The position numbers were made by a program, and so were the translations under genes. Shown piece after piece: positions 8,991 through 57,576 of a stretch of DNA of 64,000 bases (the stretch's first letter is position 1; every line of letters starts with the position of its first letter). Origin of the DNA: an uncultured Clostridium sp. GTDB lineage: Bacteria > Bacillota > Clostridia > TANB77 > CAG-508. Under the pieces are notes generated by a model that saw nothing but the letters and a program-made list of their open reading frames with translations, ran no database searches and had not been told where the DNA came from. The stretch lies in assembly GCA_948469315.1 (NCBI GenBank), contig CAOKLQ010000004.1, positions 3,517 through 67,516 of the forward strand, read 5' to 3'.

Positions 8991-9268
8991 CTACTCCTTA
9001 AAATATGTATTTTAAGGTTAGTTTTTCCATGTTTGGTATTTTTTATTCAGTATGCAATTTTTATAATTTTTCTATTTCTTCTTTTTTTTATACTTTTTAT
9101 ATACAATATTTTATAAAAAAACATGCAATATTTTTCAAAAAAATGTTGCATATTTCTTTTTTTATTGTATAATTAAATTAATAATCACATATTATAGTTA
9201 ATAATTCCCCTGTCAATTCGAAGCTTTACGTTTAGTACGTAAAAGGTATATGTAGATGAGATGGGGGA

Positions 9269-10114
9269 TTATTGATTTTCTCGTTTTTTAGTAAGCTTTC
9301 TATAATATGTAGAATTACTTGGTATAAATTTCCAATGTCTATAAGGTATAGTCCAGGTATTCATATCATGTAAACCTGTCGATACTCCTATATTAAAATT
9401 AGGATGAATCTCTCTAATTCTTTCTAATATATGTTTATAGAGTTTTTCTTTAGCAATAGTCTTTTTTCCTCTTTTATTACTGCTAGATAGTTTTTCTTTA
9501 TGAAAGTTATTTAATCTAAAATTAATTGAACCCAATATTATATCCATACACTGTAAAATAACATGGTTATGTGAAACTACTTCTGCTATGTTTTCTTTCT
9601 TTATATGAATATTGTTATCTTTAAATATATTTACATGATTTAATCCATATACAAAATCTATAAAAGTATTATTTCTATTTGGCGTATTAGGCAATTTATC
9701 AAAATAAAATCTAATATCAATTTCTTTATTTTTTAATGGATTACTATTTTCAAAACCAAACGCCCATTTTACAAATTGGTAATAAAGTAAATAGTATTCA
9801 TTATCTATTTGATTATCTGTTAAGTCATTTGCAATATAACAAACAGGTTTAAACATAATTCTAATTTTTATTTTACTTTCTTTTATATAATCAAAAAATA
9901 AATTTATTATTTCTTTATATTTTTCTAAATAACTCTCAGTTACTTTAGACCATTTTATTTCTCCAAATAAATTTAATTCTTCTTTCTTTTTATTTAAAAT
10001 TGTATTTAACTTGTTAATTTGTTTTGCATTAACAATAGCACCACCATAGAAATTTCCAAAATATTTCCCTTTTTTAGCTGATTCATCACAATATACAATA
10101 TATTCTTCTTTCAA
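9269..10114 (-). CDS. DUF3800-like protein
   Basis: 281-aa ORF. The N-terminal IVYCDESAKKG and C-terminal ILQCMDIILG blocks resemble the DUF3800 pattern as I recall it. Confidence 0.5.
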   Translation of the reverse strand: MKEEYIVYCDESAKKGKYFGNFYGGAIVNAKQINKLNTILNKKKEELNLFGEIKWSKVTESYLEKYKEIINLFFDYIKESKIKIRIMFKPVCYIANDLTDNQIDNEYYLLYYQFVKWAFGFENSNPLKNKEIDIRFYFDKLPNTPNRNNTFIDFVYGLNHVNIFKDNNIHIKKENIAEVVSHNHVILQCMDIILGSINFRLNNFHKEKLSSSNKRGKKTIAKEKLYKHILERIREIHPNFNIGVSTGLHDMNTWTIPYRHWKFIPSNSTYYRKLTKKRENQ

Positions 10115-10208
10115 TCATTCACCTCTTCTATTTGTAATTGTTTATATGTATTTGATATTAATATTTTTATTTTCTTGAAGTATAAATTTCTAATTATTAA
10201 CTTACAAA

Positions 10209-10769
10209 TTATGTAATATCATTTTCCTTTACATTTAAAGCATTTGATATAACTTCAATTTTTTTCCCAGAATTGTATGTAATTAAAACATGTACAAAAT
10301 ATATTTTATTACTTTCTATATTTGTTGTAATTGTTCCTAAAATAGTGTCTTCATCTCCAAAAATTATCTCATTTACATTTGCTTGCTCCCATTTATCTGA
10401 ATTAGTACCTATATTCTTTTTAGTATTATTAATTATATATTTGCAGTTACTAATATCTTGATTTTTTATTTCTACACTGGCTTTTGCTTCAAAATTATCC
10501 TCTGCACTTTTTACTATATCTTTATTTTGCCATTTTATATTTGCAATATCTGTATAATTACTTTTGCTATATTGTTCTTGCTTTTCATTATATATTTCAT
10601 TTACTAAATTTACATCTTTTTGATAATGCTCTATCAAACTTAAATCTGCTGTTTTTTGAGCTTTTCTTGCATTACTGCTAGATACAAATATTCCCATTAA
10701 TATTATTACAAAAAACAGCATAACTGTAAGAGTAAATACAGTTATAGAACCCTTCTCACTTTTTAACAT
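10209..10769 (-). CDS. Hypothetical membrane-anchored protein
   Basis: 186-aa ORF. The N-terminal KGSITVFTLTVMLFFVIILMGIF resembles a Tad/pseudopilin-type signal anchor; the rest has no recognisable motif. Confidence 0.5.
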   Translation of the reverse strand: MLKSEKGSITVFTLTVMLFFVIILMGIFVSSSNARKAQKTADLSLIEHYQKDVNLVNEIYNEKQEQYSKSNYTDIANIKWQNKDIVKSAEDNFEAKASVEIKNQDISNCKYIINNTKKNIGTNSDKWEQANVNEIIFGDEDTILGTITTNIESNKIYFVHVLITYNSGKKIEVISNALNVKENDIT

Positions 10770-10835
10770 ATATTTTCCTCCATTTGCTTTAAATTATTAT
10801 ACTATATTTATAAATTATTTCAAGATTTTTTAAGG

Positions 10836-10979
10836 AAAAAGCGAATTTTAAAATTTCTAAGTGGTAGTAACCACAAAGAAATTTTAGCAATTCTCATAAT
10901 TATCTTCTACCAAAATTTCTCATTTCTTATGAAAAATTTTCTAGAATATAAAAAAGGTGTAGCAAATGCCACACCTTTT
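10836..10979. repeat. Structured intergenic element, family B copy 1 (candidate small RNA)
   Basis: Shares blocks CTAAGYGRTAGTAA, CATAATTNTCTTCTAC, AAATTTCTCAT...ATGARAAATTT and CTAGAATATAAAAAAG with 32446-32600. It ends in the hairpin GGTGTAGC...GCCACACC. Confidence 0.55.
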
Positions 10980-10992
10980 AGAATCGGATTTT

Positions 10993-11268
10993 TTACTTCT
11001 TATTTTTTAAAACTTTCTTACATGCATCTATTATTAACATAATTACTGCACGTACTCCCATAACTGCCATTGCAAATATAATTGCAACTGCTATAAGACC
11101 AATTCCTATTGCTACTCCTCCTCCAATTGCAAGAAATATATTGTATTTTGTTACTATAGCATAAACTATAGCCCATAATACACATATACCTATTACTGCA
11201 AATAGCTGTTTCATAGGAGTTTCATCAATTCCAGTTAACCAAATAAAGTTTTTTATCCGTTTCATCAT
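10993..11268 (-). CDS. Small hydrophobic membrane protein
   Basis: 91-aa ORF with two long hydrophobic stretches. It contains an in-frame CGG at codon 4. Confidence 0.45.
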   Translation of the reverse strand: MMKRIKNFIWLTGIDETPMKQLFAVIGICVLWAIVYAIVTKYNIFLAIGGGVAIGIGLIAVAIIFAMAVMGVRAVIMLIIDACKKVLKNKK

Positions 11269-11510
11269 TTTCTTTTCCTCCCTTTTAATGTTAATTTTTT
11301 TATTGTTACTAAAGAAATTTTCCTTTGCACTATTTAAGTGTTTAAGAATAATTCTAATTTCCTTATGTTTCTATTATAACATATAATTTACATAATTTTC
11401 AAGTTAATTGCTAAAAATTATTGTAATATTATGTAAAACATGTTATACTAATATCATTATTAATTACATATTAAAAACATACAATAATATTATTACAAGG
11501 AGGAATTTAT

Positions 11511-12449
11511 ATGGGAATCACAATTCGGGAATTTGAAGTAGCAATGGAAACTTATGGAGCTGAAAGGTTAAATGACTTCTCGGGCTCTAGATATCCTGTT
11601 TCAGTACCATGTTTTTATGTTGCAGGTATTACTTTTTATCACTCTGGTTCATATTATATTGTTCAAATGGGAAAAAAAGTATCAAAAGAAATTATGGATA
11701 AAGCTATGGCTGAATTTGGAGAAAAGCACCCAGGAGGAGATAACTTCTGGTGGGGTGAAACACATTCAATCAGAGGAATACTTACGCTAGCAGCAATGCT
11801 TGATGGTAAGTACAGCAAAGAATTTATTGGCGATATGACAAATAAAACTTATAAAAAATTGCTTGATTGTCCATCAATTAAAACTAATGCTGAATTTCCT
11901 TTTCACAGTGTACATTCTCCGAAAATGGAAAAACTTTACAAGTTGCTTGCTGAATATAGCAACATTGTAAATTCTTTTGGTAATAGTGAGCTTAAATTCA
12001 AAGAACCAACAGAGTATTTAGATACTGTAGATGTTAGCTTAGCCTTTAAGAAAGACCTTTATACACGGCTAAATTTATCTACTAATTCATGTCAAACAAA
12101 CTTTAATAATGATAAAGATGGTTGGCACTATAATACTGCAGTATCAATTCAAAAGAATCATAAAAATGGCTCTATCCATATGGGACATTATTATACTAAT
12201 GGAAATGATAATCGTCCTATTGATGAAGTTGTTCACCTTTCTTATTACGTTAAAACCAACAGCTATAATTCTCATCCTGATGATATTGACTTACGAATCA
12301 GCTTAAAAACTGGGCTTGCTTGGCAAACTTCCAAAGAAGAGGAGGCAAAACTTGCAAGTGATGAGCAAATAGAAATTATGATTACTCATTTACAAATTTC
12401 TATTAAGAAAATAAAAAATAGAATTATTCGCAATATGATTACAAAATAA
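11511..12449 (+). CDS. Hypothetical protein
   Basis: 312-aa ORF with SD AAGGAGGA upstream and a terminator at 12486-12520. No motif recognised. Two in-frame CGG codons (11526, 12066). Confidence 0.6.
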   Translation: MGITIREFEVAMETYGAERLNDFSGSRYPVSVPCFYVAGITFYHSGSYYIVQMGKKVSKEIMDKAMAEFGEKHPGGDNFWWGETHSIRGILTLAAMLDGKYSKEFIGDMTNKTYKKLLDCPSIKTNAEFPFHSVHSPKMEKLYKLLAEYSNIVNSFGNSELKFKEPTEYLDTVDVSLAFKKDLYTRLNLSTNSCQTNFNNDKDGWHYNTAVSIQKNHKNGSIHMGHYYTNGNDNRPIDEVVHLSYYVKTNSYNSHPDDIDLRISLKTGLAWQTSKEEEAKLASDEQIEIMITHLQISIKKIKNRIIRNMITK

Positions 12450-12485
12450 TAAAATTAACTTTATTTTCTAAAAGTATGTATTTTT

Positions 12486-12520
12486 CACACAGTTTCAAAT
12501 TAGAAACTGTGTGATTTTTT
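12486..12520 (+). terminator. Rho-independent terminator
   Basis: Hairpin CACACAGTTTC-aaatta-GAAACTGTGTG followed by ATTTTTTG. Confidence 0.7.
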
Positions 12521-12668
12521 GTAGTAAAATTTATTAAATTATAAATATACTTTTTTAAGTTAATTCCTTATATTTATTCTTGACATTAATATTTTAAGAG
12601 CATATAATTTAAACAAATTTTATATACTAAATTAAATAGTTTTTTACCTAAGGAGGTATATATTTTAA

Positions 12669-13247
12669 ATGAAAGATTTAATTGAAATTAGGTGGCATGG
12701 TAGAGGTGGCCAAGGTGCTAAAACAGCTTCGCTTTTACTTGCAGATGCTGCTTTTAATACAGGCAAATATATTCAAGGATTTCCTGAATATGGACCTGAA
12801 AGAATGGGAGCGCCAATTACTGCTTATAATAGAATTTCAAACAATCCAATTACTATACATAGTAATATTTACGAACCAGATTATGTAGCTGTTGTAGACG
12901 ATAGCTTACTTGAAGCTATTAATGTAACCGAAGGCTTAAACTCTAAAGGTGCTATTATTATAAATACTACAAAAGATTCAAGTAAATTAAAAGAACTTTT
13001 AAAAGGTTATAGTGGAAATATTTATACTATAGATGCAAGGAAAATTTCAATAGAAGCTTTAGGAAATTATTTTCCAAATACTCCAATGCTTGCAGCAATA
13101 GTAAAAGTAGCAAGTATTATGTCTGATGAAAATTTTATTTCTGATATGGAAAATTCTTTTAAACATAAATTTGCTAAAAAACCTGAAGTTATTGAAGGAA
13201 ACATTAAAGCAATAAAAATTGCCTTAAAAGAAGTTCATAAAATTTAA
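12669..13247 (+). CDS. porC: 2-oxoacid (pyruvate):ferredoxin oxidoreductase gamma subunit
   Basis: 192-aa ORF with the typical IRWHGRGGQGAKTASLLLA start, first gene of a gamma-delta-alpha-beta cluster. Confidence 0.9.
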   Translation: MKDLIEIRWHGRGGQGAKTASLLLADAAFNTGKYIQGFPEYGPERMGAPITAYNRISNNPITIHSNIYEPDYVAVVDDSLLEAINVTEGLNSKGAIIINTTKDSSKLKELLKGYSGNIYTIDARKISIEALGNYFPNTPMLAAIVKVASIMSDENFISDMENSFKHKFAKKPEVIEGNIKAIKIALKEVHKI

Positions 13248-43392: not shown

Positions 43393-43851
43393 TCACAATT
43401 TTTTAAAATATTCTGTTAATTCATTTATTATCTCTTGCTTTGTTTCTAATGTATTTATCTTTTGCCTCATTTGACTTGAATCTTTTAGATTTTTTATATA
43501 CCAACTTAGCTGTTTTCTCATTTCTCTTATACCTATGTATTCTCCTTTTTGCTCTATTTCCATTTTTAAATGCCTTTTTATCATATTTAGTTTTTCTTCT
43601 AATGTAGGCTCATTTAGCTTTTCTCCTGTTTTTAGATAATGTGTTATTTGTTTAAAAATCCAGGGATTTCCAAAAGATGCTCTTCCTATCATTATTCCAT
43701 CTACCCCAGTATACTCAAACATTTCTTTTGCTGATATCTCATCTACAATATCTCCATTTCCTATAACAGGAATATTTACTGCTTGTTTTACCTTTTTTAT
43801 TATATCTAAATCTACTTTTCCGTGAGTAAAAATCTGCTCTTGTTCTTCCAT
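43393..43851 (-). CDS. dusB: tRNA-dihydrouridine synthase, C-terminal part; joined by a +1 shift at CGG 43820-43822
   Basis: Skipping a C in TCA-CGG-A joins ...HGRTRADFYS to GKVDLDIIKKVKQAVNIPVIGNGDI. Confidence 0.85.
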   Translation of the reverse strand: MEEQEQIFTHGKVDLDIIKKVKQAVNIPVIGNGDIVDEISAKEMFEYTGVDGIMIGRASFGNPWIFKQITHYLKTGEKLNEPTLEEKLNMIKRHLKMEIEQKGEYIGIREMRKQLSWYIKNLKDSSQMRQKINTLETKQEIINELTEYFKKL

Positions 43852-44368
43852 GTATAACTAAGCTTGACGCTCCTGCACCTTCAAATATTTTAGCAGCTTC
43901 TACTGCAATAACATTTTGGTTATTCCAACCTTTCCTAAATTTAACTGTTACTGGCCTTTTAGATGCTTTAACAACAGTTTCTACTATTTTTCCTGCCAAA
44001 TCTAAATTTAATAATAATTTGCTTCCATCTCCATTTTTTACAACCTTAGGTGCTGGACACCCCATATTTATATCTATTATATTAGTATATTTGCTTACAT
44101 ATTTGCTAGCATATTCTATAGCTTCTAAATCACTTCCAAATAATTGTATAGATATTGGCTTTTGCTCATTTTCTGTATCTAATAATTTTTTTGTTTTTTC
44201 ATCATTATAAAATATTGCTTTACTACTTACCATTTCTGTTGTGGCAAGCCCTGCACCTTGCTCTTTACACAAAATTCTAAATGGCAGGTCTGTAATACCT
44301 GCCATTGGTGCTAATATTATATTATTTTCTAATTCTACGTTTCCTATTTTTAATTTTTTTAAATACAT
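43739..44368 (-). CDS. dusB: tRNA-dihydrouridine synthase, N-terminal part
   Basis: Contains LAPMAGITDLPFRILC and IDINMGCPAPKV, the TIM-barrel Dus motifs. Confidence 0.85.
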   Translation of the reverse strand: MYLKKLKIGNVELENNIILAPMAGITDLPFRILCKEQGAGLATTEMVSSKAIFYNDEKTKKLLDTENEQKPISIQLFGSDLEAIEYASKYVSKYTNIIDINMGCPAPKVVKNGDGSKLLLNLDLAGKIVETVVKASKRPVTVKFRKGWNNQNVIAVEAAKIFEGAGASSLVIHGRTRADFYSRKSRFRYNKKGKTSSKYSCYRKWRYCR

Positions 44369-44616: not shown

Positions 44617-45724
44617 CTATTCAATAAATATAGATTTTTGTCTTCTTCCACTAATATTCATTAAAATTGCAAGCAAAATAAAATTAGTTAAAAGCGAGCT
44701 TCCGCCGTAGCTTACAAATGGAAGTGGTACTCCTGTAATTGGTAATAATCCCATTGTCATTCCTATGTTTTCTATCATATGAAATAAGAATATTCCTGCT
44801 ATTCCCATTGCAATATATGTTCCCAAATCATCTTTTGCAGTTTTTGCTATATATACTGCTTTTGTAATTAAAACTACATATGTTATAATAACTGCTCCTG
44901 CTATTATAAATCCCATTTCTTCGCTTATTACAGAAAATATAAAGTCTGTAGTTTTTGGATATAAAAATCCTAATTGTGTTTGATTTCCTTTTAATATTCC
45001 CATTCCAAATAACTTTCCTGCTCCAATTGCAAGTTTTGATTGAATTATATTATAACCTGATCCTCTTGCATCTGATTCTGGATTCAAAAATACCTGTATT
45101 CTAGATTTAGCATGTGTTGGTAGTACAAAATTATATAAAATTGGCAATGCAACTAAAATTACTATCATTGTTCCAATTATATATTTCTTATCTAAACCTG
45201 CTATTAATAATATTAATGCTGTTGCAACTAAAAATGCCATTTCTGTTCCATAGTCTGGCTGTTTTATTATTAATAATACTGGAACTACAACTATTGATAA
45301 ACATGATATTAATTTTACTGGTGCATTTATTTCGTTTTGGTCTTTTTCTTGAATTCTACATATTACAGTTGCCATTAATAATATAACACATATTTTTGCA
45401 AATTCTGCTGGTTGAAATGTAAATACTTTTAAATCAAACCAACTACTAGCTCCATTTATAGGTTTTGTAAATAAAACCGCTATTAGCAAAATTATACTTA
45501 TTCCGATAAAAAATAGGAGAAAATTTCGATATTACCTCATAATCTATAAAAATTATTGCAAATACCATTGGTATACAAATTATAAACCAAATTAATTGTT
45601 TTTGCAGACTATCAAAACCACTATCATGTGTTGCTGAAAATAATGCTATTGTTCCTACCACACATAGTATTATAGCACATATAAAAATTCCCCAATCTAT
45701 ATTTTTTAGAATTCTTCTTTTCAT
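44617..45724 (-). CDS. rodA: FtsW/RodA/SpoVE family peptidoglycan polymerase; needs a +1 shift at CGG 45503-45505
   Basis: Two track ORFs. Skipping a C in TAT-CGG-A joins ...SKFSPIFY to GISIILLIAVLFTKPINGASSWFD. The order minD-minE-rodA is typical of Clostridia. Confidence 0.8.
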
Positions 45725-47400: not shown

Positions 47401-49176
47401 TTAATTTCCAAATCTGTATATCTTATCTGAATTTGTAATTGTAAATCCTCCATTTATAAATTCTAAATGGCTATCTTCTGTTACTACCTTACACGGAAAA
47501 GATTTAGAGACATTAGTTCCTACATTTAATCCAATAATTTGTGCATTTCCTGGCTCATAAATCGTATTCCCTGCAAAGCAGATACCAGAAAGTGGCATTG
47601 CTGAATATTTCCATGTGGTGTTATCTTCTACAATTCTTTTTTCTCCAAATACTAAGGTTCTAAAGCTACCATCTAGCTTTTCATAAATGAACAACCATCT
47701 TTTAGTCTGCTCATCATATTTTAAAGCATATTCTGTAATTGGTTCATTACAGTCAATCTCATATGTGTGACCATTAGCAACTACTATTGCCCTTTGCGGA
47801 TAGAAAGATGCAATAAATCTTGTTTTATCATCAATGATTTTAAAAATAGGCTTATTTACAAAGTCTTCGCTTTGCTTAAATGTTCCTCTTCTTGTTAATT
47901 TCATTGATTTAAGTCTTCCATTTCTATCAACATAATAGAGCGTATCATCTACCATATCATAATTTGACTTGTGAGCTTTTTCAACCTCATAAGTTCTTTG
48001 TGTATTATTGTCCTGAATAGTAATTACATCATCTTTAATTTCAAGGATGTATTTTCCATCATTAGTAAATTCAATAATTGATTTACCATTAACATTTACT
48101 CTTTTCCCAGTTTTCCTATGCACAATCTTATGATCTCTAGACAAATATACTTTGTCTGATAATATACACTCAACATCATCAGATTCAAATATAATTGTAA
48201 GCATAATATTTGAGGTATTAGCTGCTAATTGTTTCTTTGGAGCTGACTGCATCTGTGCATTTTTATTGCATACTGGGCACTCTCCAAATTTTGAATAATA
48301 ATAGCCATTATGTTTTTTACAATATGACATATTATTATATAATTCTTCAAGATATGGAAGAATGTTTTGTCTTAAATTTCCTTCAAAGATTTCCTTAAAT
48401 TTCTCTAATAATTCTGGCGAGATCCAATTCCAAGACGGAGTTGTTGACCTTATACCTACATTATGAGGTCCAAGTACAGAAATTTTATTAGCTATTCTTT
48501 CCTTGAAGTTCCATTTAGGCTCTTTAGCATATTGTCCTCCAAATGGATGTACTTGAGCTAAAATATAAAAACATAAAACTGCTAGTGCAAAATTATCTGT
48601 TTTTTCTGTTAACTCAATTACTCCATTTGACTTATATGCTTCTGGTGCAGTGTAATTTTCAGTATATGTTACCGCATACACTTTCCCTTTTATACCATAA
48701 CTATCTGTATCAACAGCATATACCTTTTTTCCCATTATTGAAAAATTTTGATCATTAATATCTCCTACAATGTATCCCATTTTATGCAATTCTTCCACCA
48801 TTTTTGCAACTGCAATAGCATACCTTAATACGTCTTTATTTGATAATCTATTTTTCTTTAAATGGTTGCGTTTTGTAAGCTGCCGTATTGGATCATCTTC
48901 TTTTAATCTTTCCATAATATAGGCTTCAAAAGATTGACCTACATATACAGAATCAATTGGCCCAATAACATTTTCAGGAAATTTTTGAGTAATAAAACAT
49001 TTTACTACTACTTCTTTCCTTTTTTTATCAATTGGTATTCCTGTTTGAGGATTTTTATCTTTGAAAATTTTAATTACGGTGTTTTCATCATACCCAGCAA
49101 TGTCGGCTTCTCCTCCTTCTGCAATGTAATTACTTTTTTTAAGAGAATCTAATTGGCTTTTTGTCATTGTTATCAT
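47401..49176 (-). CDS. Ser/Thr protein kinase-like protein, third gene of a TerY-P triad
   Basis: VIKIFK lysine, catalytic-loop-like VGDINDQN, DFG-like VDTDSYG, and a Cys-pair region CKKH...CPVC. Start taken at ATG 49176, which follows GGAGG. Confidence 0.75.
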   Translation of the reverse strand: MITMTKSQLDSLKKSNYIAEGGEADIAGYDENTVIKIFKDKNPQTGIPIDKKRKEVVVKCFITQKFPENVIGPIDSVYVGQSFEAYIMERLKEDDPIRQLTKRNHLKKNRLSNKDVLRYAIAVAKMVEELHKMGYIVGDINDQNFSIMGKKVYAVDTDSYGIKGKVYAVTYTENYTAPEAYKSNGVIELTEKTDNFALAVLCFYILAQVHPFGGQYAKEPKWNFKERIANKISVLGPHNVGIRSTTPSWNWISPELLEKFKEIFEGNLRQNILPYLEELYNNMSYCKKHNGYYYSKFGECPVCNKNAQMQSAPKKQLAANTSNIMLTIIFESDDVECILSDKVYLSRDHKIVHRKTGKRVNVNGKSIIEFTNDGKYILEIKDDVITIQDNNTQRTYEVEKAHKSNYDMVDDTLYYVDRNGRLKSMKLTRRGTFKQSEDFVNKPIFKIIDDKTRFIASFYPQRAIVVANGHTYEIDCNEPITEYALKYDEQTKRWLFIYEKLDGSFRTLVFGEKRIVEDNTTWKYSAMPLSGICFAGNTIYEPGNAQIIGLNVGTNVSKSFPCKVVTEDSHLEFINGGFTITNSDKIYRFGN

Positions 49177-49189
49177 ATTGTCATCCTCC

Positions 49190-49930
49190 TTAAAATACAA
49201 TGCTTATATCATCTTGGAATATAGGTACTTGTTTTTTTGCTTGACCATTTTCCTCTGAATATTTTTCATTACATTTACCAATATATCGTGACATTGGACC
49301 TTTCTTTCCTTTTTTTAATAATTCAATAAATCGCTCTCCATCAGAATGATTCAATTTTCTCCAAAATCTTAAGCCGTCTGTTGCAACTCCTACATTTACG
49401 TATTTGTCTTTTGAATAAATATGCTCTGTAAAACTTACATCTTCTTTATAAAGTTTTAGCTTTTCTTTATCTACATAATTATAAATAAAATATTTTGGAT
49501 ACTCTTCTCCATCATCTTCGATTACTTCTTTGGTTTCATTAAACAAGACTAATCCATCTTTATCTTGTGTAATAATATAACCATCCCCACATGTCAAAAC
49601 GATATATTCGTCATCTTCTTCAAAAACAGCAAGAATTGTAAATGTACTTATATTGTATAATACATTATTTACATCTTTGTAAATAATTTCCATAGCTTCT
49701 TTAAGCTTAGAAAAAAATTCTTTTACTGTTTCTTCAAAATTTTCTACATTAATATGTTCTTTTTCCCGTAGTGCTAAATTAAACATTCTTGGTCCAATTT
49801 CAGAAAAATCTCCTGAACCACAACCATCCATTATAACTTTTACCTTATGGTCATCAGAAATATAAAAGTAATCCTGATTATTTCTGTTTGCACCAACATG
49901 GTCACTTCCAATTTTGTTTACAGATATCAT
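49190..49930 (-). CDS. PP2C-family Ser/Thr phosphatase, second gene of the TerY-P triad
   Basis: 246-aa ORF with RNNQDYF, MDGCGSG, TCGDGYII and VATDGL motifs. Confidence 0.75.
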   Translation of the reverse strand: MISVNKIGSDHVGANRNNQDYFYISDDHKVKVIMDGCGSGDFSEIGPRMFNLALREKEHINVENFEETVKEFFSKLKEAMEIIYKDVNNVLYNISTFTILAVFEEDDEYIVLTCGDGYIITQDKDGLVLFNETKEVIEDDGEEYPKYFIYNYVDKEKLKLYKEDVSFTEHIYSKDKYVNVGVATDGLRFWRKLNHSDGERFIELLKKGKKGPMSRYIGKCNEKYSEENGQAKKQVPIFQDDISIVF

Positions 49931-50007: not shown

Positions 50008-50730
50008 TTAAACAGCAAACATACCCTCATTTACTGTTGGAGCCTTTGCTCCCTGTGATACAGACAGTGCAGATTTAGAAACAAATTTAAATGCTGCTCT
50101 TAACTGCTTTCTTCTCTCTTCCGGCGATTCCGTCTGATCTCCTGCTTTTAAGATGTACTCTCTTGGAATTCCCAGTTCAGTTGCTACACCTCTTGCTTCT
50201 GGTCCAAACTCAATGAAATATACAACAATCCCGCTGTCCACAAGCCCCTATAATGCTTCTTTCGCCTTAGTCTTTGCTCCATGTGCAGAATCATTATCAT
50301 GCCCATCTGAAAGAAATACCAATATTCCCTTTGCTGTAAAATTCTTGTCTTCAAACTCTTTTATCGCTTCTTTTATATTGTCTACTGACTGAATAACTGC
50401 ATCAAAAAGCTTTGTTGACCAGCCTGGTGCTGAATAAGTAGTATCCCAATCCTCTACCAAGCAATATGGACTTTCTTCAATCCGCTCTCCAAACAAAGTC
50501 TTACCAAGAATCATTTCATCAACCTGTTTTGAACCTAAAAACATATTCTGCATATCTTCAAGTTCATCTCCAACTTCTGATTCATATGGCTCCATAGAAG
50601 CTGAATCGTCAATAACTACTCTGACTAAGGTCTGCTGATCAGAGTCCAGATCATCAAAATCAAAGTTCATTGGTGCGGTATCTTCATCAAAACCTACCTG
50701 TGGTGCTACATCATCATATTTTTCCATCAT
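50008..50730 (-). pseudogene. TerY-like vWA domain protein interrupted by one in-frame TAG (50248-50250)
   Basis: MIDAS motif VVIDDSASM. ORFs 50248..50730 and 50008..50241 are in the same frame: ...KTKAKEAL-TAG-GLVDSGIVVYFIEFGPEARG... Confidence 0.7.
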
Positions 50731-50766: not shown

Positions 50767-51729
50767 TTAGGCTGCATATATATCTGTTACATCTGTTGAC
50801 TTAACAAATTTTACACCCATCTTCTTGATTTCTTCCATCTTCTCAGCTGTTACCTGTTCGAATCCGCCGATACAAGACATGCAATCTTCCAAAACAACGA
50901 TTTTGCTTAAGATATCTGGTCTGTTTGCAAAGTGTTTTACAATCTGCTGCAATGTTCTTAAAAAGCAATGTGACTTTGCCTGCCCTGCAAGATAAATCTT
51001 AACAAGTTTTGGATTTTCAAAAACATTTAATATGTCAGATCGTATCTCATTTTCTGGAGAATATTCTGCCTCAATTGCACCATACTGCTCGCTGTACTGA
51101 TCCTGACCTTTGTAATACGCCATCGGATTACAGTCACGTACATCAGAATGGAACTTAATAATCTTTTCAAGTTCCCCCTCAAGTGCTGCTCCTCTAGTAT
51201 TTTCCAAACAGTGATATGGCCAAATTCTTAATTCCTCTCCGCCAGCTTCAACGTTTTTTACATATGTTAATTCTTTTGTTTGGTTTGGCAGATCTGCTTT
51301 GAATTTGCCTTCTTTAATACCCTCGTTTGTAATTACAGTCACACCTGGAAGTACATGTTCTCCTTTTTTGTGTTCTCCGTTTTCATCGGTAAAATCTTTG
51401 CCATAAACCCAACCACTTGAGAAAAAAATGTGGCTATACTTATGCCAATCTAAAGTATACCGGATACGATAAATCTTATCCATAAACTTATAGATAAATC
51501 TACAAAGTCTTTCGGTATCTGCTACCGCTCCTTCTACTGGAAGAGCTCCTTGTGGTGAAATGAAATCAAACTGATTATCAATCATCATAAGCTCTACCCG
51601 ATCAACATCACGACTTGAGGGCACCTTTACCTCATTGTCTGCCATCATCATTACCTGTGGTAAATCAATTCCAGCCTCTGTTGTACCAATTTTGCTTACA
51701 TTTACAATTTCTTCAAATCTCGTTTTCAT
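50767..51729 (-). CDS. pncA: Nicotinamidase (PncA-like isochorismatase-fold cysteine hydrolase) with a ~70-aa insertion
   Basis: Blocks IDNQFDF, TLDWHKYSHIFF, WPYHCLENTRGAAL, YYKG and LAGQAKSHCFL match the PncA Asp/His-His/Lys/Cys blocks. Only 36 nt separate it from the vWA gene. Confidence 0.75.
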   Translation of the reverse strand: MKTRFEEIVNVSKIGTTEAGIDLPQVMMMADNEVKVPSSRDVDRVELMMIDNQFDFISPQGALPVEGAVADTERLCRFIYKFMDKIYRIRYTLDWHKYSHIFFSSGWVYGKDFTDENGEHKKGEHVLPGVTVITNEGIKEGKFKADLPNQTKELTYVKNVEAGGEELRIWPYHCLENTRGAALEGELEKIIKFHSDVRDCNPMAYYKGQDQYSEQYGAIEAEYSPENEIRSDILNVFENPKLVKIYLAGQAKSHCFLRTLQQIVKHFANRPDILSKIVVLEDCMSCIGGFEQVTAEKMEEIKKMGVKFVKSTDVTDIYAA

Positions 51730-51843: not shown

Positions 51844-51872
51844 ATATTATCATATTTACATAAAACTGTCAA
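51844..51872 (-). promoter_or_regulatory. Promoter of the pncA-like/TerY-P operon with the shared TTATGTAAAT core
   Basis: Minus strand reads TTGACA-gttTTATGTAAATatga-TAATAT. An inverted second core lies at 51887-51896. Confidence 0.5.
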
Positions 51873-52026
51873 TAGCGTTTTAAATTTTATGTAAATATTT
51901 TACATATTATTTTCTTTTATATACTTTAACTACAAATTTTTTTGTATATTAAACAAATAAATAACAAAACTAGCCTACTTTATTTAAAAGTAGACTAGTT
52001 ACAAAAATTAATTTAGAAAATATCTT

Positions 52027-53631
52027 TTAGAATTTGCCATTGTAAACTCTAATTGATTCACTTGCAACTCTTTGTCTGATTTCATCAAAGGTATGAGTTC
52101 TTACGAAGTCTCCATCAACAAACATATCTTCAAGCAGATTGCCTTTAATATCTTTAATTGTATCAGGAGTAAGATTATCAATTAATTTGTAATCCCCATC
52201 TTCAAAAACAACAGCTACTAAGCCTTTCTGAGACTTTTTGAAATTGTCAGAATCTGTTGCTGGATCTTTGTAAATTGCTTTAAATTCTCCATTTACAACT
52301 TCTGCCGTTCCTTTAAGTGCAAAGCCTAATGTATCTCGTGTTACATACTGGTATGTGTATGAGCCAATACCTAAGCCAACACTTACAGAAACAAAGCCGT
52401 TTTTCATTAAGTCTTCACATATTGAAATTGCTCTTTCAGGTGTAATTGAGTCCCCATAAACACATCCAATATGAGGATCAAGTTCAATAAAACCTGCTTC
52501 ATTTACAGTTCCTCCAAAGATTTCATAAAGACGCTTAACTAAACCTTTTTTAATTGTTTCTTCGAAACCTATTAGCCTTTGGCTTAATTCTTTCTCATAT
52601 ACATATGGATCTCCACAAATAATGTCTACAGGATCTCCTGAATCTGGTCTAATATTAAGCTTTCCATTTCTGCTCATAATGGCTGCTTTAACTTCTGCAT
52701 CTGTTAATACATTATCAACAAAATTCCATAAGTTGTATGTATCAGATACCATTGTTAAAGTACCACTTGGATACACTTCGGTAATAAGTCTCAAAAGTGC
52801 ATTTTTTTCTTTTTTACCATAAGATTCCATTACACTATGCTCTGTTGAAGGAGCATAAGCAATAACATCTGGCTTAGCATCATAATATGCCATAAGATAA
52901 TTTCTTGCCGGAATTGTTGCAGAACTTCCAAAACTAAGCAAATGTCCAGGAGTTGTTCTGTATGCTGCCTCTGGACTTCCCATACCACGCATTGAAAAAT
53001 CTCCACCCTGATTAAATACTCTTCCAGGCTGATTGCAACCAGTAATCTTTGCATAATGTGTAAGTATTCTTTTATACTTATCTGCAATTGTTGCAGCTGT
53101 CATTGGTTGCCATACTAAGCAGGATAAAGGTGTTTCCAAATATCCTGGTAGCCAGAAAAATTCAGGAAGTGTATTTTCAATAGTAAACATTGGAACTCCC
53201 ACTTTTCTAATCTTTTTTTCATCAATGGTAAATTCGCCACCTATCTGCACAAAACTTCCCTCTTTTATTGCTTTTACTCTAATTGGCAAATATCCTAACT
53301 TATGAAGTTTCTCAAAGTGAGAATAGTCATAGTTTTGTACCATTTCAGGATTTGTTACTCCAAATGTTCCAGAAAGACTTTCTATAGTCTCCTTTGTTAC
53401 TGCTACTTCAATAGGTCTTTCAAAAAAGCCTCTTTTCCATTTCCAATACAATGTTGCAAGAGCTCCCTGGAGTCCAAAAAATACTGCATGAGTTATGCCA
53501 TCAATCCGGGATTTCCTTGGAGTCCATGTTTCATAAGTCCATTCCATACCTTCTGGATATTGATCTTTGTGACAAAACTTGTAACCATCTGTAAGTAACG
53601 CTGGATTTTCAATCATTTCATTAAACATCAT
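52027..53631 (-). CDS. Nicotinamide phosphoribosyltransferase family protein (NadV/Nampt-like; possibly a Namat-type enzyme)
   Basis: 534-aa ORF with N-terminal LLTDGYKFCHKDQYP, typical of Nampt. It starts 2 nt after the Prs-like stop. A terminator lies at 51968-52000. Confidence 0.8.
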   Translation of the reverse strand: MMFNEMIENPALLTDGYKFCHKDQYPEGMEWTYETWTPRKSRIDGITHAVFFGLQGALATLYWKWKRGFFERPIEVAVTKETIESLSGTFGVTNPEMVQNYDYSHFEKLHKLGYLPIRVKAIKEGSFVQIGGEFTIDEKKIRKVGVPMFTIENTLPEFFWLPGYLETPLSCLVWQPMTAATIADKYKRILTHYAKITGCNQPGRVFNQGGDFSMRGMGSPEAAYRTTPGHLLSFGSSATIPARNYLMAYYDAKPDVIAYAPSTEHSVMESYGKKEKNALLRLITEVYPSGTLTMVSDTYNLWNFVDNVLTDAEVKAAIMSRNGKLNIRPDSGDPVDIICGDPYVYEKELSQRLIGFEETIKKGLVKRLYEIFGGTVNEAGFIELDPHIGCVYGDSITPERAISICEDLMKNGFVSVSVGLGIGSYTYQYVTRDTLGFALKGTAEVVNGEFKAIYKDPATDSDNFKKSQKGLVAVVFEDGDYKLIDNLTPDTIKDIKGNLLEDMFVDGDFVRTHTFDEIRQRVASESIRVYNGKF

Positions 53632-53633
53632 AA

Positions 53634-54476
53634 TTATCTTCCTCCTTTTTTTATTAATGTTTTGCCTACATATACCATTGCAGCAACATCCATATATACG
53701 ATGTTTGGATGTTCTTTACACATAATAGATTTACTTGTGTAAACTTTACTGATAGGTGAATCTTTAGTCAAAAGCGTTCCTTCAAAAATTGTTTCTTCAC
53801 AATGAGAAACAACTAAATAAACTTCACTTGCCCCTAAAGATTTGAGAATACTTCCTGCCCAAGCAAAAGTTCCTCCTTTTGAGCAAAGATCATCAATAAT
53901 TATGCACTTCGAACCAGGATTAACTTTTCCTTCTTTAAGGTGCATATCCTCAATCTTTCCTGTTATAGGATCACGCTTTTTCTCCATAATACAAATATTA
54001 GCATAATCACTATCAGCGTATCTTGCTGCTGCTCCCTTATCTGGAAATACAATATGATCATTTTGTGTAAACCCAACTTCTTCTTGAACTGTTGGTAACC
54101 AATCTGTTACAGGATAAACTGGAATTGATCTAACCAATCTCATCATTGTCTCGTCTGAATGTGGTTCCATTACAATTACTTTTTCAAACTTCATCCAATT
54201 AATGAAATTGCAAACATATTGAAGGGTAAATAAATCTCCCTCAATTTTGCGATCCATACGACTATATGGCATATACCATACAAAAAGTACACATGGAACC
54301 TTAAACTCATCAATACGTAGCTTCACAAACATAAGCTTTAGTAACTCCTCATCTGTTACATATTTGAACTCGAGAATATTCCGACCTTTTATAATCACAT
54401 CCTCAAAGTCCTTTACCTTAGTTTCTCCGTTTGGAAACCGCTCAGTTTCAATCTCATGCCCATTGAGTTTAATCAT
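53634..54476 (-). CDS. Ribose-phosphate pyrophosphokinase family protein (short Prs-like; possibly Adps-type)
   Basis: 280-aa ORF with FPNGE, MPYSRMDR and PRTase loop CIIIDDLCSKGGTF. Confidence 0.8.
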   Translation of the reverse strand: MIKLNGHEIETERFPNGETKVKDFEDVIIKGRNILEFKYVTDEELLKLMFVKLRIDEFKVPCVLFVWYMPYSRMDRKIEGDLFTLQYVCNFINWMKFEKVIVMEPHSDETMMRLVRSIPVYPVTDWLPTVQEEVGFTQNDHIVFPDKGAAARYADSDYANICIMEKKRDPITGKIEDMHLKEGKVNPGSKCIIIDDLCSKGGTFAWAGSILKSLGASEVYLVVSHCEETIFEGTLLTKDSPISKVYTSKSIMCKEHPNIVYMDVAAMVYVGKTLIKKGGR

Positions 54477-54559
54477 AAGCTGATACCTCCTAAAAAATTA
54501 TTTGTTTTTGTTTAGTAAAAAAATTATTTTTTTACATAATAACTTAAAACTTGTTTAAT

Positions 54560-54588
54560 ATTGTATTATAATTTACATAATTTGTCAA
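54560..54588 (-). promoter_or_regulatory. Promoter of the Prs-like/Nampt-like operon with the shared core
   Basis: Minus strand reads TTGACA-aaTTATGTAAATtataa-TACAAT. Confidence 0.5.
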
Positions 54589-54601: not shown

Positions 54602-54631
54602 TTGACATAATATGCGTTTTTATGTTATACT
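54602..54631 (+). promoter_or_regulatory. Divergent nadE promoter
   Basis: TTGACA-17/18 nt-TATACT. It lacks the shared core. Hairpins at 54641-54655 and 54654-54674 lie in the leader. Confidence 0.45.
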
Positions 54632-54726
54632 ATAACTCAACTGTTTTTATACAGCTATCATAAATTACTGATAGCAAAAGACAAATATATTACTATTAAA
54701 TTTTTAATTTTAAAGGAGGTAACTTT

Positions 54727-56655
54727 ATGGTAAATTATGGTTTTGTGAAATGTGCTATTGCTACATGTAATAGTAAGCTTTCAAATCCTAATTCAGCAAC
54801 AGAAAAAATTAAAGGTTTAGTAAAAGAAGCTGATCTGCGGGATGTTAAGGTATTAGTATTTCCTGAGCTTAGCCTTACTGGTTATACTTGTCAAGATCTT
54901 TTTGGGTATTCACAACTATTGGAGTCTACTATGGATTGCTTAAAAGAACTTGTTGTCTTTTCTAAATCCTTTAATACTCTGTTTATTGTTGGAGCACCTA
55001 TAAATGTTCTTGATACCTTGTATAACTGTGCTGTTGTGATTCAAGGTGGAAAAATTCATGGAATTGTTCCAAAGCAGTATATTCCAAACTATGGAGAATT
55101 CTATGAAAAGCGGTGGTTTACAGCTTATACAGATACTTCTATAACATCTGTTAATCTATTTGGTGAAGATATACCTTTTGGTAATTTAATATTTTCATCT
55201 TCTATAGGTTATAGATTAGGAATAGAAATCTGTGAGGATCTTTGGTCTGTTATTCCGCCTAGCTCTTCTTTAGCATTAGCTGGTGCCAACATTATTGCAA
55301 ATTTATCTGCAAGTAATGAATTGGTTGGCAAAGATGAGTATCGCAAGGAACTTATTAAAACTCAAAGTTCTCGAACAATTTCAGCATATCTTTATACTTC
55401 TTCTGGATGTTTTACTGAAGCTGAATCAACAAGTGATTTGGTTTTTGGGGGAAGTGGTTATGCTTATGAAAATGGCAAACAATTAACTTGCCTTGAACGT
55501 TATGAGCTTGAAGATCAAATGGAAATCTTTGATGTTGATATTGAAGATTTAACTAATGAGAGAATCTATAATAAGACATTTAGTGATAGCAAGCGCAATT
55601 TAAATGTATCTTATAGAGAAATCTATATTATACAATATGCAATTGAAGATAATATCTTCTATCTGTCTAGAAATGTAAATGCTCATCCATTTGTACCAAC
55701 TTTAGACGGGAACAAAAGAAACACAGTATGTAAAGAAATTCTTTCTATTCAGTCTACTGGTTTGGCAAGAAGATTATCTGCAATCAAAAATACTAAAGTT
55801 ACAATTGGTATTTCTGGCGGTTTAGACTCAACCTTAGCTTTGCTTGTATGCTATGAAGCTTTTAAAAAGCTTCATCTTGATGTTTCAGGAATAATTGGAA
55901 TTACTATGCCTGGATTTGGTACAACAGACAGGACATATAATAATGCTGTTAAATTGTGTCAAGAATTAGGTATAACATTAAAAGAAATTTCAATTAAAGA
56001 TGCTTGCATTCAACATTTCAAGGATATTGAACATGATCCTAGTATACATGACATTACTTATGAAAATGTCCAAGCAAGAGAAAGAACCAAGATTCTTATG
56101 AATATGGCAAATAAGCATCATGCAATTTTGGTCGGAACTGGCGATTTATCTGAGTTAGTATTAGGCTGGTGTACCTATAATGGTGACCACATGAGTATGT
56201 ATGGAGTTAATTGCTCTATTCCAAAAACTCTTGTAAGATATCTCATTGAATGGTATGCTACCGAATCTGGCAAGGAAAATCAAACACTTAAGGACATCTT
56301 ATTGGATATTATAAATACTCCAATTAGTCCTGAGCTACTTCCAACTGATGGTAAACAAGTTGTTCAGAAAACTGAAAGCACAATAGGTCCTTATGAAGTT
56401 ATTGATTTCTTTATCTACTATCTCTTAAGAAAAAAATTTTCTCGTAGGAAAATTATGTATTTGGCAAATATTGCTTTTAATGAAGTATATTCTGCAGATG
56501 AACTTAACGACTACTTTAATAACTTCACTAAAAGATTCTTTAACAATCAATTTAAAAGAAACGCTATTCCAGACGGACCAAAAGTTGGAACTGTCAGTGT
56601 TTCTCCAAGAGGAGATTTGAGAATGCCATCAGATGCAGACTATACAGCTTGGTAA
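54727..56655 (+). CDS. nadE: Glutamine-dependent NAD+ synthetase (N-terminal nitrilase/CN-hydrolase domain plus synthetase domain)
   Basis: 642-aa ORF with the CN-hydrolase Glu/Lys/Cys pattern (FPELSLTGY, EICEDLW) and PP-loop GISGGLDST. A terminator lies at 56683-56714. Confidence 0.9.
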   Translation: MVNYGFVKCAIATCNSKLSNPNSATEKIKGLVKEADLRDVKVLVFPELSLTGYTCQDLFGYSQLLESTMDCLKELVVFSKSFNTLFIVGAPINVLDTLYNCAVVIQGGKIHGIVPKQYIPNYGEFYEKRWFTAYTDTSITSVNLFGEDIPFGNLIFSSSIGYRLGIEICEDLWSVIPPSSSLALAGANIIANLSASNELVGKDEYRKELIKTQSSRTISAYLYTSSGCFTEAESTSDLVFGGSGYAYENGKQLTCLERYELEDQMEIFDVDIEDLTNERIYNKTFSDSKRNLNVSYREIYIIQYAIEDNIFYLSRNVNAHPFVPTLDGNKRNTVCKEILSIQSTGLARRLSAIKNTKVTIGISGGLDSTLALLVCYEAFKKLHLDVSGIIGITMPGFGTTDRTYNNAVKLCQELGITLKEISIKDACIQHFKDIEHDPSIHDITYENVQARERTKILMNMANKHHAILVGTGDLSELVLGWCTYNGDHMSMYGVNCSIPKTLVRYLIEWYATESGKENQTLKDILLDIINTPISPELLPTDGKQVVQKTESTIGPYEVIDFFIYYLLRKKFSRRKIMYLANIAFNEVYSADELNDYFNNFTKRFFNNQFKRNAIPDGPKVGTVSVSPRGDLRMPSDADYTAW

Positions 56656-56886
56656 CATATAATCTTTAAAATAACAATACAAAAATAGCAGGTATAATAT
56701 ATCTGCTATTTTTGTGCTTTTTACTTATTCTTATTATATTCCTCAACGTCCTTTATTGCAACTGCTACTGCTTCTTCAGAACCTACAAATTAAATAATAA
56801 GTGATTGTGTCTTTTGTTCGTTTTCATCAAAGGTAATTGATTTTTTAAATCTGGATAAGCATCAAACATAGTAATTGCCTTTTTTA

Positions 56887-57576
56887 TCATTTTTCCATGT
56901 TAATATTAACTACCCCACTGCCAAAGATGCTATATGTATCAATAAGCAAAGATACTTTCTCTGGGTATACATCTGCAAATGCCTTAAAAGCTTCCCATTC
57001 AGTTGGAAACATCTCAATCCATGCATGAGCAACTGTTCCTACTGCATTTACTGGTGATCCAAAGACAATCTCTGATAAGCAATTTGCTGTACCTGAGCAT
57101 CCTCCTAAAATAGCAGATCTTGCACCATACAAACTTGCAGACTGTCCTTGTGCTCTTCTTCCACCAAATTCCATAACATTACCATCATTATCAGCAGCAC
57201 GAACAATCTTTGTTGCCTTTGTGGTAATAAGACTGTTAAAGTTCATCGTACCTTTCCACTTGTATCTGGACAAGTACTTAACAAATTCTTCATCCATACC
57301 TTTTGTAAGTAAATACTGGCATGCAATTTCATCAAAATGGTATGAAAGCAAAAACTCTGTAAGCTGCTCCTGACCTGCACTGATTGAATATCCAGATTCC
57401 TTTCCTTTTGCTCCAGGATTTTTCCTAAAAAAGCAATCAAACACCAATTGCGTATCCTTAAAACCGAGCTTAAATAGTCCATTTACCATGATAAACTCAT
57501 AAAAGTCTGTGTTTAATGCATCATTCCGGTAATCCTTCCTTGGTACAAAAGGTACTACTTTAATTGTTTCTTTCAT
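56887..57576 (-). pseudogene. pncB: Nicotinate phosphoribosyltransferase, N-terminal fragment only
   Basis: 229 aa (ALNTDFYEFIMVNG...LLIDTYS) of a family that is normally about 480 aa. Downstream 56700-56886 holds only short stop-interrupted fragments. Confidence 0.7.

Follow-up and report, generated by a model that had tools for sequence, protein, structure and literature searches.

The subject of this analysis is a pair of adjoining genes in a 64,000-nucleotide stretch of DNA (hereafter, the window) from an uncultured Clostridium sp. (contig CAOKLQ010000004.1 of assembly GCA_948469315.1). The first gene (53634..54476, minus strand) encodes a protein of 280 amino acids (aa) with a fold like that of phosphoribosyl pyrophosphate (PRPP) synthetase (Prs), which is assigned here to Adps, the ADP-ribose (ADPR) pyrophosphokinase family. 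The second gene (52027..53631, minus strand) encodes a 534-aa protein of the nicotinamide phosphoribosyltransferase (Nampt) kind. It resembles Namat, the partner of Adps in the NAD+-rebuilding system NARP1, and belongs to a variant group termed type A (Ala or Ser at position 215 together with Ser at position 242, in the numbering of Namat from phage SPbetaL1); it is predicted to be a nicotinate ADP-ribose transferase.

An initial annotation of the window had described a Prs-like gene ending 2 nt before a Nampt-like gene. Both open reading frames (ORFs) are confirmed at the coordinates given there but lie on the minus strand, and the peptides quoted from them (FPNGE, MPYSRMDR, IIIDDLCSKGGTF and LLTDGYKFCHKDQYP) are all found. 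The spacing is likewise borne out: the TAA stop codon of the Adps-like gene occupies 53636..53634 and is followed, after 2 nt, by the ATG of the Namat-like gene at 53631..53629. Direct reading of the sequence reveals that the last Adps-like codons contain a ribosome-binding site (GGAGG; 53641..53645, minus strand) 9 nt 5′ of this ATG, which makes translational coupling of the two genes plausible. A promoter-like site (54560..54588, minus strand; TTGACA-17-TACAAT), kept as TTGCAA/TTGACA-17-TGnTATAAT in 10 related Clostridia loci, precedes the pair, and a terminator-like hairpin with a T-run (51968..52000, minus strand) stands directly 3′ of the Namat-like stop codon. Together with the ribosome-binding site and the 2-nt spacing, these signals make the pair look like a bicistronic unit.

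Two further genes of NAD metabolism flank the pair. The next gene downstream of the Namat-like gene (50767..51729, minus strand; 320 aa) has no Pfam match and is, on sequence profiles and a predicted structure, a divergent nicotinamidase, of a family termed X304. A profile of 27 homologues retrieved solely nicotinamidases as top PDB matches (best E-value 6.8e-12), and the top 12 Foldseek matches of the AlphaFold2 model (pLDDT 93.8) were all nicotinamidases (TM-score 0.72–0.80). Both the catalytic triad (Asp51, Lys207 and Cys255) and the metal site formed by Asp94, His96 and His173 (DxH...WPxHC) are invariant. On the other side, divergent from adps, lies the gene for a 642-aa glutamine-dependent NAD+ synthetase, NadE (54727..56655, plus strand), which reaches 822 bits with model NF002730 (cut-off 473) and contains the Pfam domains NAD_synthase and CN_hydrolase. 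Tail to tail with nadE, a truncated remnant of pncB, encoding nicotinate phosphoribosyltransferase (56887..57576, minus strand), retains the N-terminal half only of about 480 aa; NCBIfam NaPRTase models match approximately residues 1–241 of 480 at scores below their cut-offs, and the remnant is not at this position in related loci.

The initial annotation had also stated that the island lacks an adenylyltransferase. This stands for NadD, to which no window ORF of at least 80 aa was matched (blastp and phmmer, E. coli NadD query). No NMNAT-like protein was found among the translations of 43–64 kb; the NadM query was a 95-residue fragment of a phage NMNAT-Nudix protein, and NadR-type enzymes had no query of their own.

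Assignment of the Pair to the Adps/Namat Family

The Adps-like protein falls below all NCBIfam cut-offs for Prs (best, TIGR01251 with 95.5 bits against a cut-off of 113; Prs equivalog models, at most 78 bits against cut-offs of 296–536) and matches phrog_619 (1.4e-62). It is 40% identical to the validated Adps of SPbetaL1 (166 bits, BLASTP), which in phmmer scores 174.5 bits as opposed to 41.6 for E. coli Prs, while the highest-scoring Prs in the PDB reaches 60 bits. According to the structure of ICP1 Adps, members of the family are recognized by a remodelled pyrophosphate (PP) loop and by the loss of the C-terminal helices of Prs (PMC13586617). The PP loop of the window protein reads DDLCSKGGTF, with Cys215 and Phe221, where E. 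coli Prs has DDMIDTGGTL; both residues recur in 43/43 Adps proteins that are partners of type-A Namats. Its length of 280 aa, compared with 315 aa in E. coli Prs, fits a loss of the C-terminal regulatory helices. Conserved residues (ICP1 numbering) comprise F18, R87, H121, D161, the catalytic K185, Asp212 and Asp213; however, the acceptor-site residues R87, H121, D161, Asp212 and Asp213 as well as K185 are common to Prs and, alone, do not discriminate. Among the contacts to the ADPR adenine, Phe18 and Arg87 are kept, while position 92 is Ile in the window protein and Glu in the validated Adps proteins of SPbetaL1 and Paenibacillus foliorum; with Glu in two validated Adps proteins, the Phe92 contact of ICP1 is not family-wide. 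Weak PADLOC matches of the Adps-like protein to the phosphoribosyltransferase domains of ShosT and PsyrT were treated as shared-domain noise. As a side observation, a solo Adps-like gene (P0043; 8001..8819 in loci L002–L004), encoding a protein 62% identical to the window protein with the PP loop DDLCGTGGTM, occurs in a common gut Firmicute, where its neighbours are ileS and a gene for an ABC ATPase and where 8 kb around it contain no Namat-like gene.

The best PDB matches of the Namat-like protein are 9W5W and 9W5X (446 bits), the structures of SPbetaL1 Namat with NAD+ and with nicotinamide, while the Nampts of human, rodents and Xanthomonas score about 150 bits. SPbetaL1 Namat, with 47% identity, is also the best match among 50,697 phage records. 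Namat is defined by a “selectivity clamp” for adenine, consisting of the helix motif GSxPhi1xPhi2xPhi3TRD and the loop residue Arg40 (Lan et al., PMC12774641). In the window protein, residues 423–433 (codons 52333..52365, minus strand) read GSYTYQYVTRD, which fits this consensus, and Arg42 aligns with SPbetaL1 Arg40, the clamp-loop position at which an Arg, Lys or Tyr stacks on the adenine; NARP2-type NadV enzymes have GGGLLQQLDRD where the clamp motif stands. The Nampt-like core is kept with Phe212, Arg215, His265, Arg328, Asp330 and Gly393-Asp394, corresponding to Phe189, Arg192, the catalytic His245, Arg306, Asp308 and Gly360-Asp361 of SPbetaL1. A neighbour-joining tree puts the protein inside the clamp-bearing group, with NadV as the outgroup.

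On its scores against characterised proteins and on the published signature motifs, the pair is assigned to the Adps/Namat (NARP1) type and not to a housekeeping Prs with a classical NadV. The initial annotation had held that sequence cannot separate the two; in fact, the clamp motif (PMC12774641) and the PP loop (PMC13586617) do so, and the window proteins carry both. It had further regarded a chromosomal bacterial copy as noteworthy, which the literature had already anticipated: non-prophage bacterial NARP1 was noted by Osterman et al. 2024, an enrichment of NARP1 in chromosome regions that are not mobile emerged from the AntiDefenseFinder survey, and the pair of P. foliorum has been validated, making NAD+ in vitro and in vivo (Lan et al., PMC12774641).

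An Altered Pyridine Pocket in Type A

In the crystal structure of SPbetaL1 Namat, Asp215 and Ala242 are the named residues of the nicotinamide pocket that bind the amide, and the variant D215A shows an 8.1-fold decrease in NAD+ synthesis (PMC12774641). The equivalent residue of human Nampt, Asp219, defines substrate specificity; its exchange for Ser (D219S) switches the affinity for substrates, and its exchange for Ala (D219A) leaves no activity. In the window protein, Asp215 is replaced by Ala238 (52918..52920), Ala242 by Ser262 (52846..52848) and Ile220 by Arg243 (52903..52905); together with Tyr259, these residues are encoded within 52846..52920 (minus strand), and their columns discriminate type A from the Asp-type enzymes (type D). 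When the window protein was aligned with SPbetaL1 Namat and its own 120 best database homologues, 106 sequences had Ala at position 215, 14 had Ser, one had Glu and one, SPbetaL1 itself, had Asp; at position 242, 113 had Ser.

An unbiased scan for columns splitting the two states returned only 10, namely S32E, F55A, L88F, N141G, H187G, D215A, I220R, S239Y, A242S and I358V. At six of these columns (187, 215, 220 with Leu or Ile, 239, 242 and 358), three NadV outgroups agree with the Asp-type enzymes, which makes type A the derived state. The replacement of Asp215 and Ala242 is fixed across the 45 members of the type-A clade, and the adenine-clamp residues are kept throughout, which argues for an adenine-bearing donor and against a simple nicotinate phosphoribosyltransferase using PRPP. 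The loss of an acidic group and the gain of Arg, Ser and Tyr is as would be expected for the binding of a carboxylate, i.e., of nicotinate.

Linkage to NadE and Nicotinamidase across Related Loci

Residue states and neighbouring genes were recorded for 167 loci, comprising 80 genomic and 80 viral loci, the window and further loci; linkage was counted within 10 kb. Type A accounts for 46 and the Asp type for 121 of the loci, the latter consisting of 78 viral contigs, phage SPbetaL1 and 42 Paenibacillaceae loci (including L054, the validated P. foliorum pair). NadE is encoded near 43 and a nicotinamidase near 41 to 42 of the 46 type-A loci, the shortfalls being contig ends with one exception (L015, see below), while neither gene was found near any Asp-type locus (0/121). 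The adps gene adjoins namat in 44 of the type-A loci. In the neighbour-joining tree, all of type A falls into a single clade, whose sister is the Asp-type clade.

The linked genes come in different forms and arrangements. NadE is a glutamine-dependent enzyme of about 640 aa, encoded divergently, in gut Clostridia and a 260-aa protein encoded inside the operon elsewhere. The nicotinamidase is a 300–320-aa X304 protein in most loci and a canonical short PncA in two Bacillota metagenome-assembled genomes (MAGs), in Nomurabacteria and in a viral contig. At least six gene orders occur over Clostridia, Bacteroidota, Bacillota MAGs, Nomurabacteria and Saccharibacteria. In one Bacteroidota-like locus (L008, 11094..11486), a 130-aa protein with a weak match to HAD phosphatases (BT0820 family) is encoded between nadE and the nicotinamidase gene in the operon. 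A search of the 167 related loci for homologues of PncB and NadD found none; hence, these clusters hold the first and the last enzymes of the Preiss-Handler pathway without the two middle ones.

A tight arrangement is found in a 116-kb viral contig (L095; IMG/VR UViG 3300009826_000018), the sole locus with the Ala215 state among the 80 viral loci, where adps, a type-A namat, nadE and a canonical pncA (176 aa) overlap in one operon (7160..10926), flanked by genes for a Dam methylase, a dUTPase, a ThyX-like protein and PhoH. If the Namat-like enzyme converted nicotinamide to NAD+, such an operon would make little sense. In two MAGs of Nomurabacteria and Saccharibacteria (L045 and L046), the full set of adps, type-A namat, nadE, nicotinamidase gene, the vWA-PP2C-kinase triad described below and an NrtR-like gene is present. 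The route may be a main source of NAD+ for these candidate phyla radiation bacteria with reduced genomes.

Proposed Route and Competing Explanations

The proposed route would start from ADPR and nicotinamide released by NAD+-consuming enzymes. The nicotinamidase (50767..51729) would hydrolyse nicotinamide to nicotinate and ammonia, and the Adps-like enzyme would transfer pyrophosphate from ATP to the free ribose of ADPR, yielding ADPR-pyrophosphate (ADPR-PP). The type-A Namat-like enzyme, in which the clamp is kept and the amide-binding Asp is lost, would then join nicotinate and ADPR-PP to nicotinic acid adenine dinucleotide (NaAD), which the divergently encoded NadE would amidate to NAD+. 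The pair would, thus, stand in for PncB and NadD between the first and last Preiss-Handler steps, and with a single transfer of nicotinate onto ADPR-PP, no adenylyltransferase for nicotinamide mononucleotide (NMN) or nicotinic acid mononucleotide (NaMN) would be needed. The decay of pncB in the window would fit its replacement by this route; a further copy of pncB in the genome is possible.

The sequences show directly to which family the pair belongs, which residues have changed, that the neighbouring genes encode a nicotinamidase and NadE, and that all these genes are linked. From the gene context, NaAD formation from nicotinate is predicted rather than NAD+ formation from nicotinamide. The initial annotation had left the choice between NARP1 and Prs/NadV open; scores and motifs bear out the Adps/Namat kind, while the lost Asp, the nicotinamidase gene downstream and the divergent nadE, three features that it had overlooked, favour a nicotinate/NaAD variant over canonical NARP1. 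We consider it probable, with appreciable room for error, that the pair represents a sister clade (type A) of the Adps/Namat family which makes NaAD from nicotinate, with NadE completing the synthesis. For the more specific claim that type-A enzymes catalyse the reaction nicotinate + ADPR-PP → NaAD + PPi, and define a four-enzyme “deamidated NARP1” that bypasses PncB and NadD, the balance of evidence is slightly favourable. Its carriers would be gut Clostridia, Sphingobacterium, Dysgonomonas, Saccharibacteria, Nomurabacteria and at least one large phage.

Several points weigh against the nicotinate route. Substrates and product of the type-A enzymes are inferred from comparative evidence, and the change from Asp to Ala could be tolerated or compensated. 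That Arg243 binds the nicotinate carboxylate is itself a proposal, and S32E (Glu34 in the window protein) is another clade-specific change. Since type A is one clade, the raw linkage counts overstate independence, and the association of Ala with NadE could formally be traced to a single ancestral event; the clustering of NAD genes under regulators such as NrtR could explain some of the adjacency. In one type-A locus, L015, the flanks are complete and yet no gene for NadE or a nicotinamidase lies near the pair. Furthermore, the Adps partners of type-A Namats were not recovered as a single clade by neighbour joining; this tree is crude, has E. coli Prs as its sole outgroup and is not used as evidence.

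These points leave room for canonical NARP1, in which the Namat-like enzyme would join ADPR-PP and nicotinamide directly to NAD+ despite Ala215, and NadE and nicotinamidase would be near owing to the clustering of NAD genes. The clamp and the catalytic-core residues are all kept, as this explanation would have it; the SPbetaL1 variant D215A is eightfold weaker and not dead, the bacterial NARP1 of P. foliorum makes NAD+ directly, and NrtR-regulated NAD gene clusters are common. We nevertheless judge it unlikely, if with a real chance of being correct, because the split is perfect (NadE or nicotinamidase near 0/121 Asp-type loci, compared with about 43/46 type-A loci), NadE and nicotinamidase occur without PncB or NadD, and the changes at several pocket positions coincide and are fixed throughout the clade. 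The phage operon adps-namat-nadE-pncA also speaks against it, as its nicotinamidase would destroy the substrate of the enzyme and its NadE would be left without one.

Explanations based on PRPP are, taken jointly, improbable. In one of them, the Prs-like enzyme would supply PRPP for a Nampt-like protein acting as a nicotinate phosphoribosyltransferase, and the resulting NaMN would be processed by a NadD encoded elsewhere and then by NadE. It would account for pocket changes that suggest nicotinate, for the linkage of NadE and nicotinamidase to the pair and for the truncated state of the window's own pncB, and Namat is able to use PRPP in vitro. It is nonetheless very improbable, given that the clamp residues Arg42, Tyr425, Tyr427, Tyr429, Thr431 and Asp433 are kept over at least four phyla, whereas the PRPP-using NadV is without them, that the partner has an Adps-type PP loop and misses the Prs cut-offs, that the validated relative, SPbetaL1 Adps, gives no product from ribose-5-phosphate, and that NadD never lies within the clusters. 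Even more remote is the classical combination of Prs and NadV, forming NMN from PRPP and nicotinamide, with an NMN adenylyltransferase encoded elsewhere completing NAD+. The domain and model names retrieved from Pfam and NCBIfam (Pribosyltran, NAPRTase/NAMPT_N, PRK09198) and the historical annotation of bacterial prs-nadV operons speak for it; against it stand a Namat score threefold that of any Nampt, the presence of the clamp motif and the absence of the nicotinamide-binding Asp, a Prs-like protein that lies under every Prs cut-off, and the fact that no adenylyltransferase was found in the window.

Regulatory Elements and Genomic Setting

The intergenic region shared by nadE and adps contains two conserved elements. 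In the adps 5′-leader, a hairpin (54515..54535, minus strand; GTAAAAAAA-TAA-TTTTTTTAC) differs in its stem sequence among 10 related Clostridia loci, yet its arms still pair. In the nadE leader, the inverted repeat GCTATC-N10-GATAGC (54654..54675, plus strand) is kept in 10 Clostridia loci, with variants altering both arms together (GTTATC..GATAAC); this repeat might be an operator site or might fold as a hairpin in RNA. Both elements may serve as an operator or attenuator for NAD-related control. No Rfam family was detected in 44–60 kb at the gathering threshold, and the conserved leader hairpins are, therefore, not explained by a known NAD+ riboswitch. Further signals comprise a promoter-like site (54602..54631) and a terminator-like site (56678..56716) of nadE as well as a promoter-like site 5′ of the nicotinamidase gene (51844..51872, minus strand; TTGACA-17-TAATAT with TG).

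Downstream of the nicotinamidase gene, three genes follow on the minus strand, encoding a vWA-like protein (50008..50730), a PP2C-type phosphatase (49190..49930; Pfam PP2C_2, E-value 1.8e-11) and a Ser/Thr-kinase-like protein with a long C-terminal extension (47401..49200; Pfam Pkinase, E-value 5.8e-10). The vWA-like gene contains an in-frame TAG (50248..50250). In a metagenome copy (L090:3003-3722), 238/239 residues are identical to the vWA-like protein and Lys stands at the TAG codon. The stop is either a nonsense mutation in this strain or an error of sequencing. A match to Pfam VWA is seen in relatives only, and there it is faint. The initial annotation spoke of a defence triad. The three genes are present, but the defence label finds no support in PADLOC, which gave no match for the vWA-like protein, an E-value of 0.0023 for the phosphatase and weak matches of the kinase to PD-T4-6 and mad6 only, the inclusion of a TerY-P model in the release being unchecked; moreover, the same module occurs without Adps/Namat in Lachnospiraceae.

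The block of nicotinamidase, vWA, PP2C and kinase genes adjoins Adps/Namat in gut Clostridia, where it is conserved; it does so too, on the opposite strand, in two genomes of the candidate phyla radiation. In three Lachnospiraceae loci (L092–L094, approximately 7001–12800), the X304 nicotinamidase, the vWA-like protein, PP2C, the kinase and NrtR (Nudix and winged-helix domains) are encoded without Adps/Namat; the nicotinamidase of this very common lineage (P0337) is found in 551 blocks of the collection index. The occurrence of the triad with NrtR in the absence of Adps/Namat links it, via the nicotinamidase, to NAD metabolism and ADPR sensing and not to Adps/Namat specifically, be it in regulation or in defence. 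One may speculate that the nicotinamidase-triad module controls or exploits the route, depleting the nicotinamide available to phage Namat or NadV while the host keeps a private nicotinate route.

A prophage origin of the window was considered and rejected, as its flanks contain minD, minE, rodA and topA and no phage structural genes were seen. The cluster (approximately 46–58 kb) has a GC content of 0.29–0.38 compared with 0.23–0.27 in the flanks, and its relatives are without the window's minD or topA flanks; with this raised GC content and these unshared flanks, the cluster behaves as a movable island in the chromosome of an AT-rich, uncultured lineage of gut Clostridia. The nearest representative genomes are MAGs of uncultured gut Clostridia/Clostridiaceae with 78–83% identity. 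Outside the cluster, the genes for a tRNA-dihydrouridine synthase (43393..44368, minus strand) and a RodA/FtsW-like protein (44617..45724, minus strand) both appear as two ORFs that overlap, a sign of frameshifts. These frameshifts, the stop in the vWA-like gene and the pncB remnant suggest either that the assembly is faulty in homopolymer-rich, AT-rich DNA or that gene decay is under way.

Relation to Known Systems and Implications

NARP1, as known from the phages SPbetaL1, Bas63 and ICP1 and from P. foliorum (Osterman et al. 2024; PMC12774641; PMC13586617), shares with the window the tightly coupled adps-namat pair, the Adps-type PP loop with the catalytic Lys, the Nampt-like core, the clamp helix (SCH) and the Arg of the clamp loop (SCL). 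It differs in the pyridine pocket, where the window has Ala238 and Ser262 in place of Asp215 and Ala242 and where H187G, I220R and S239Y are also fixed. Furthermore, NadE and nicotinamidase almost always accompany the window's sister clade and are never nearby in validated NARP1 loci, and the predicted product is NaAD instead of NAD+. The Preiss-Handler pathway (PncA, PncB, NadD and NadE) also begins with a nicotinamidase and ends with NadE, and NaAD would be an intermediate in both; however, PncB and NadD are absent from the related clusters (in the window, a pncB remnant is left), the two middle steps would be replaced, and the adenylate part would stem from recycled ADPR and not from ATP via NadD.

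Chromosomal pairs of a Prs paralogue and a NadV-like protein for NAD recycling have previously been described as NrtR-regulated prs-nadV operons, with ADPR as the effector of NrtR (Rodionov et al. 2008, PMC2330246). Many type-A loci (in Sphingobacterium, Dysgonomonas and the candidate phyla radiation) adjoin a gene for an NrtR-like Nudix regulator, for which ADPR is the known effector. In contrast, no NrtR is encoded in the window, and the 2008 interpretation, the formation of NMN from PRPP and nicotinamide, does not suit a clamp-bearing, Asp-less enzyme. NARP2 (NadV and NMNAT-Nudix) and NARP3 (PnuC and NadR) likewise rebuild NAD+ in the conflict between phage and host. The NadV of NARP2, however, keeps Asp215 and Ala242, is without the clamp and needs an adenylyltransferase; NARP3, composed of the unrelated proteins PnuC and NadR, was rejected as a match for the nicotinate route. 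The triad resembles TerY-P-type vWA/PP2C/Ser-Thr kinase triads in having the same three domain types in the same order, here downstream of a nicotinamidase. It differs in that in relatives it forms a module of four to five genes together with the X304 nicotinamidase and, in many cases, NrtR, and in that the vWA-like gene of the window has an in-frame stop.

In the literature covered, which is incomplete and may have missed an earlier description, no paper was found that ties ADPR-PP, Namat or NARP1 to NaAD, NadE, nicotinic acid or deamido-NAD. Chromosomal pairs of the Adps/Namat family are already known, while the type-A clade and its presumed chemistry appear to be new. If the nicotinate route proves wrong, the locus would be an ordinary chromosomal NARP1, as already described.

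If it is correct, type-A enzymes would catalyse a reaction new to enzymology and provide a fourth way to rebuild NAD+ from its breakdown products, with a specificity switch of two to three residues (Asp215, Ala242 and Ile220) that is open to mutagenesis. The route would explain the many chromosomal “NARP1” matches in NAD operons with NadE, nicotinamidase and the ADPR-sensing NrtR, and tools that at present annotate any Adps/Namat pair as anti-defence NARP1 would have to be corrected. The NAD metabolism of candidate phyla radiation bacteria with reduced genomes and of abundant gut Clostridia would need to be re-evaluated. NadD is an essential drug target, and a route that bypasses it would be relevant in those bacteria.

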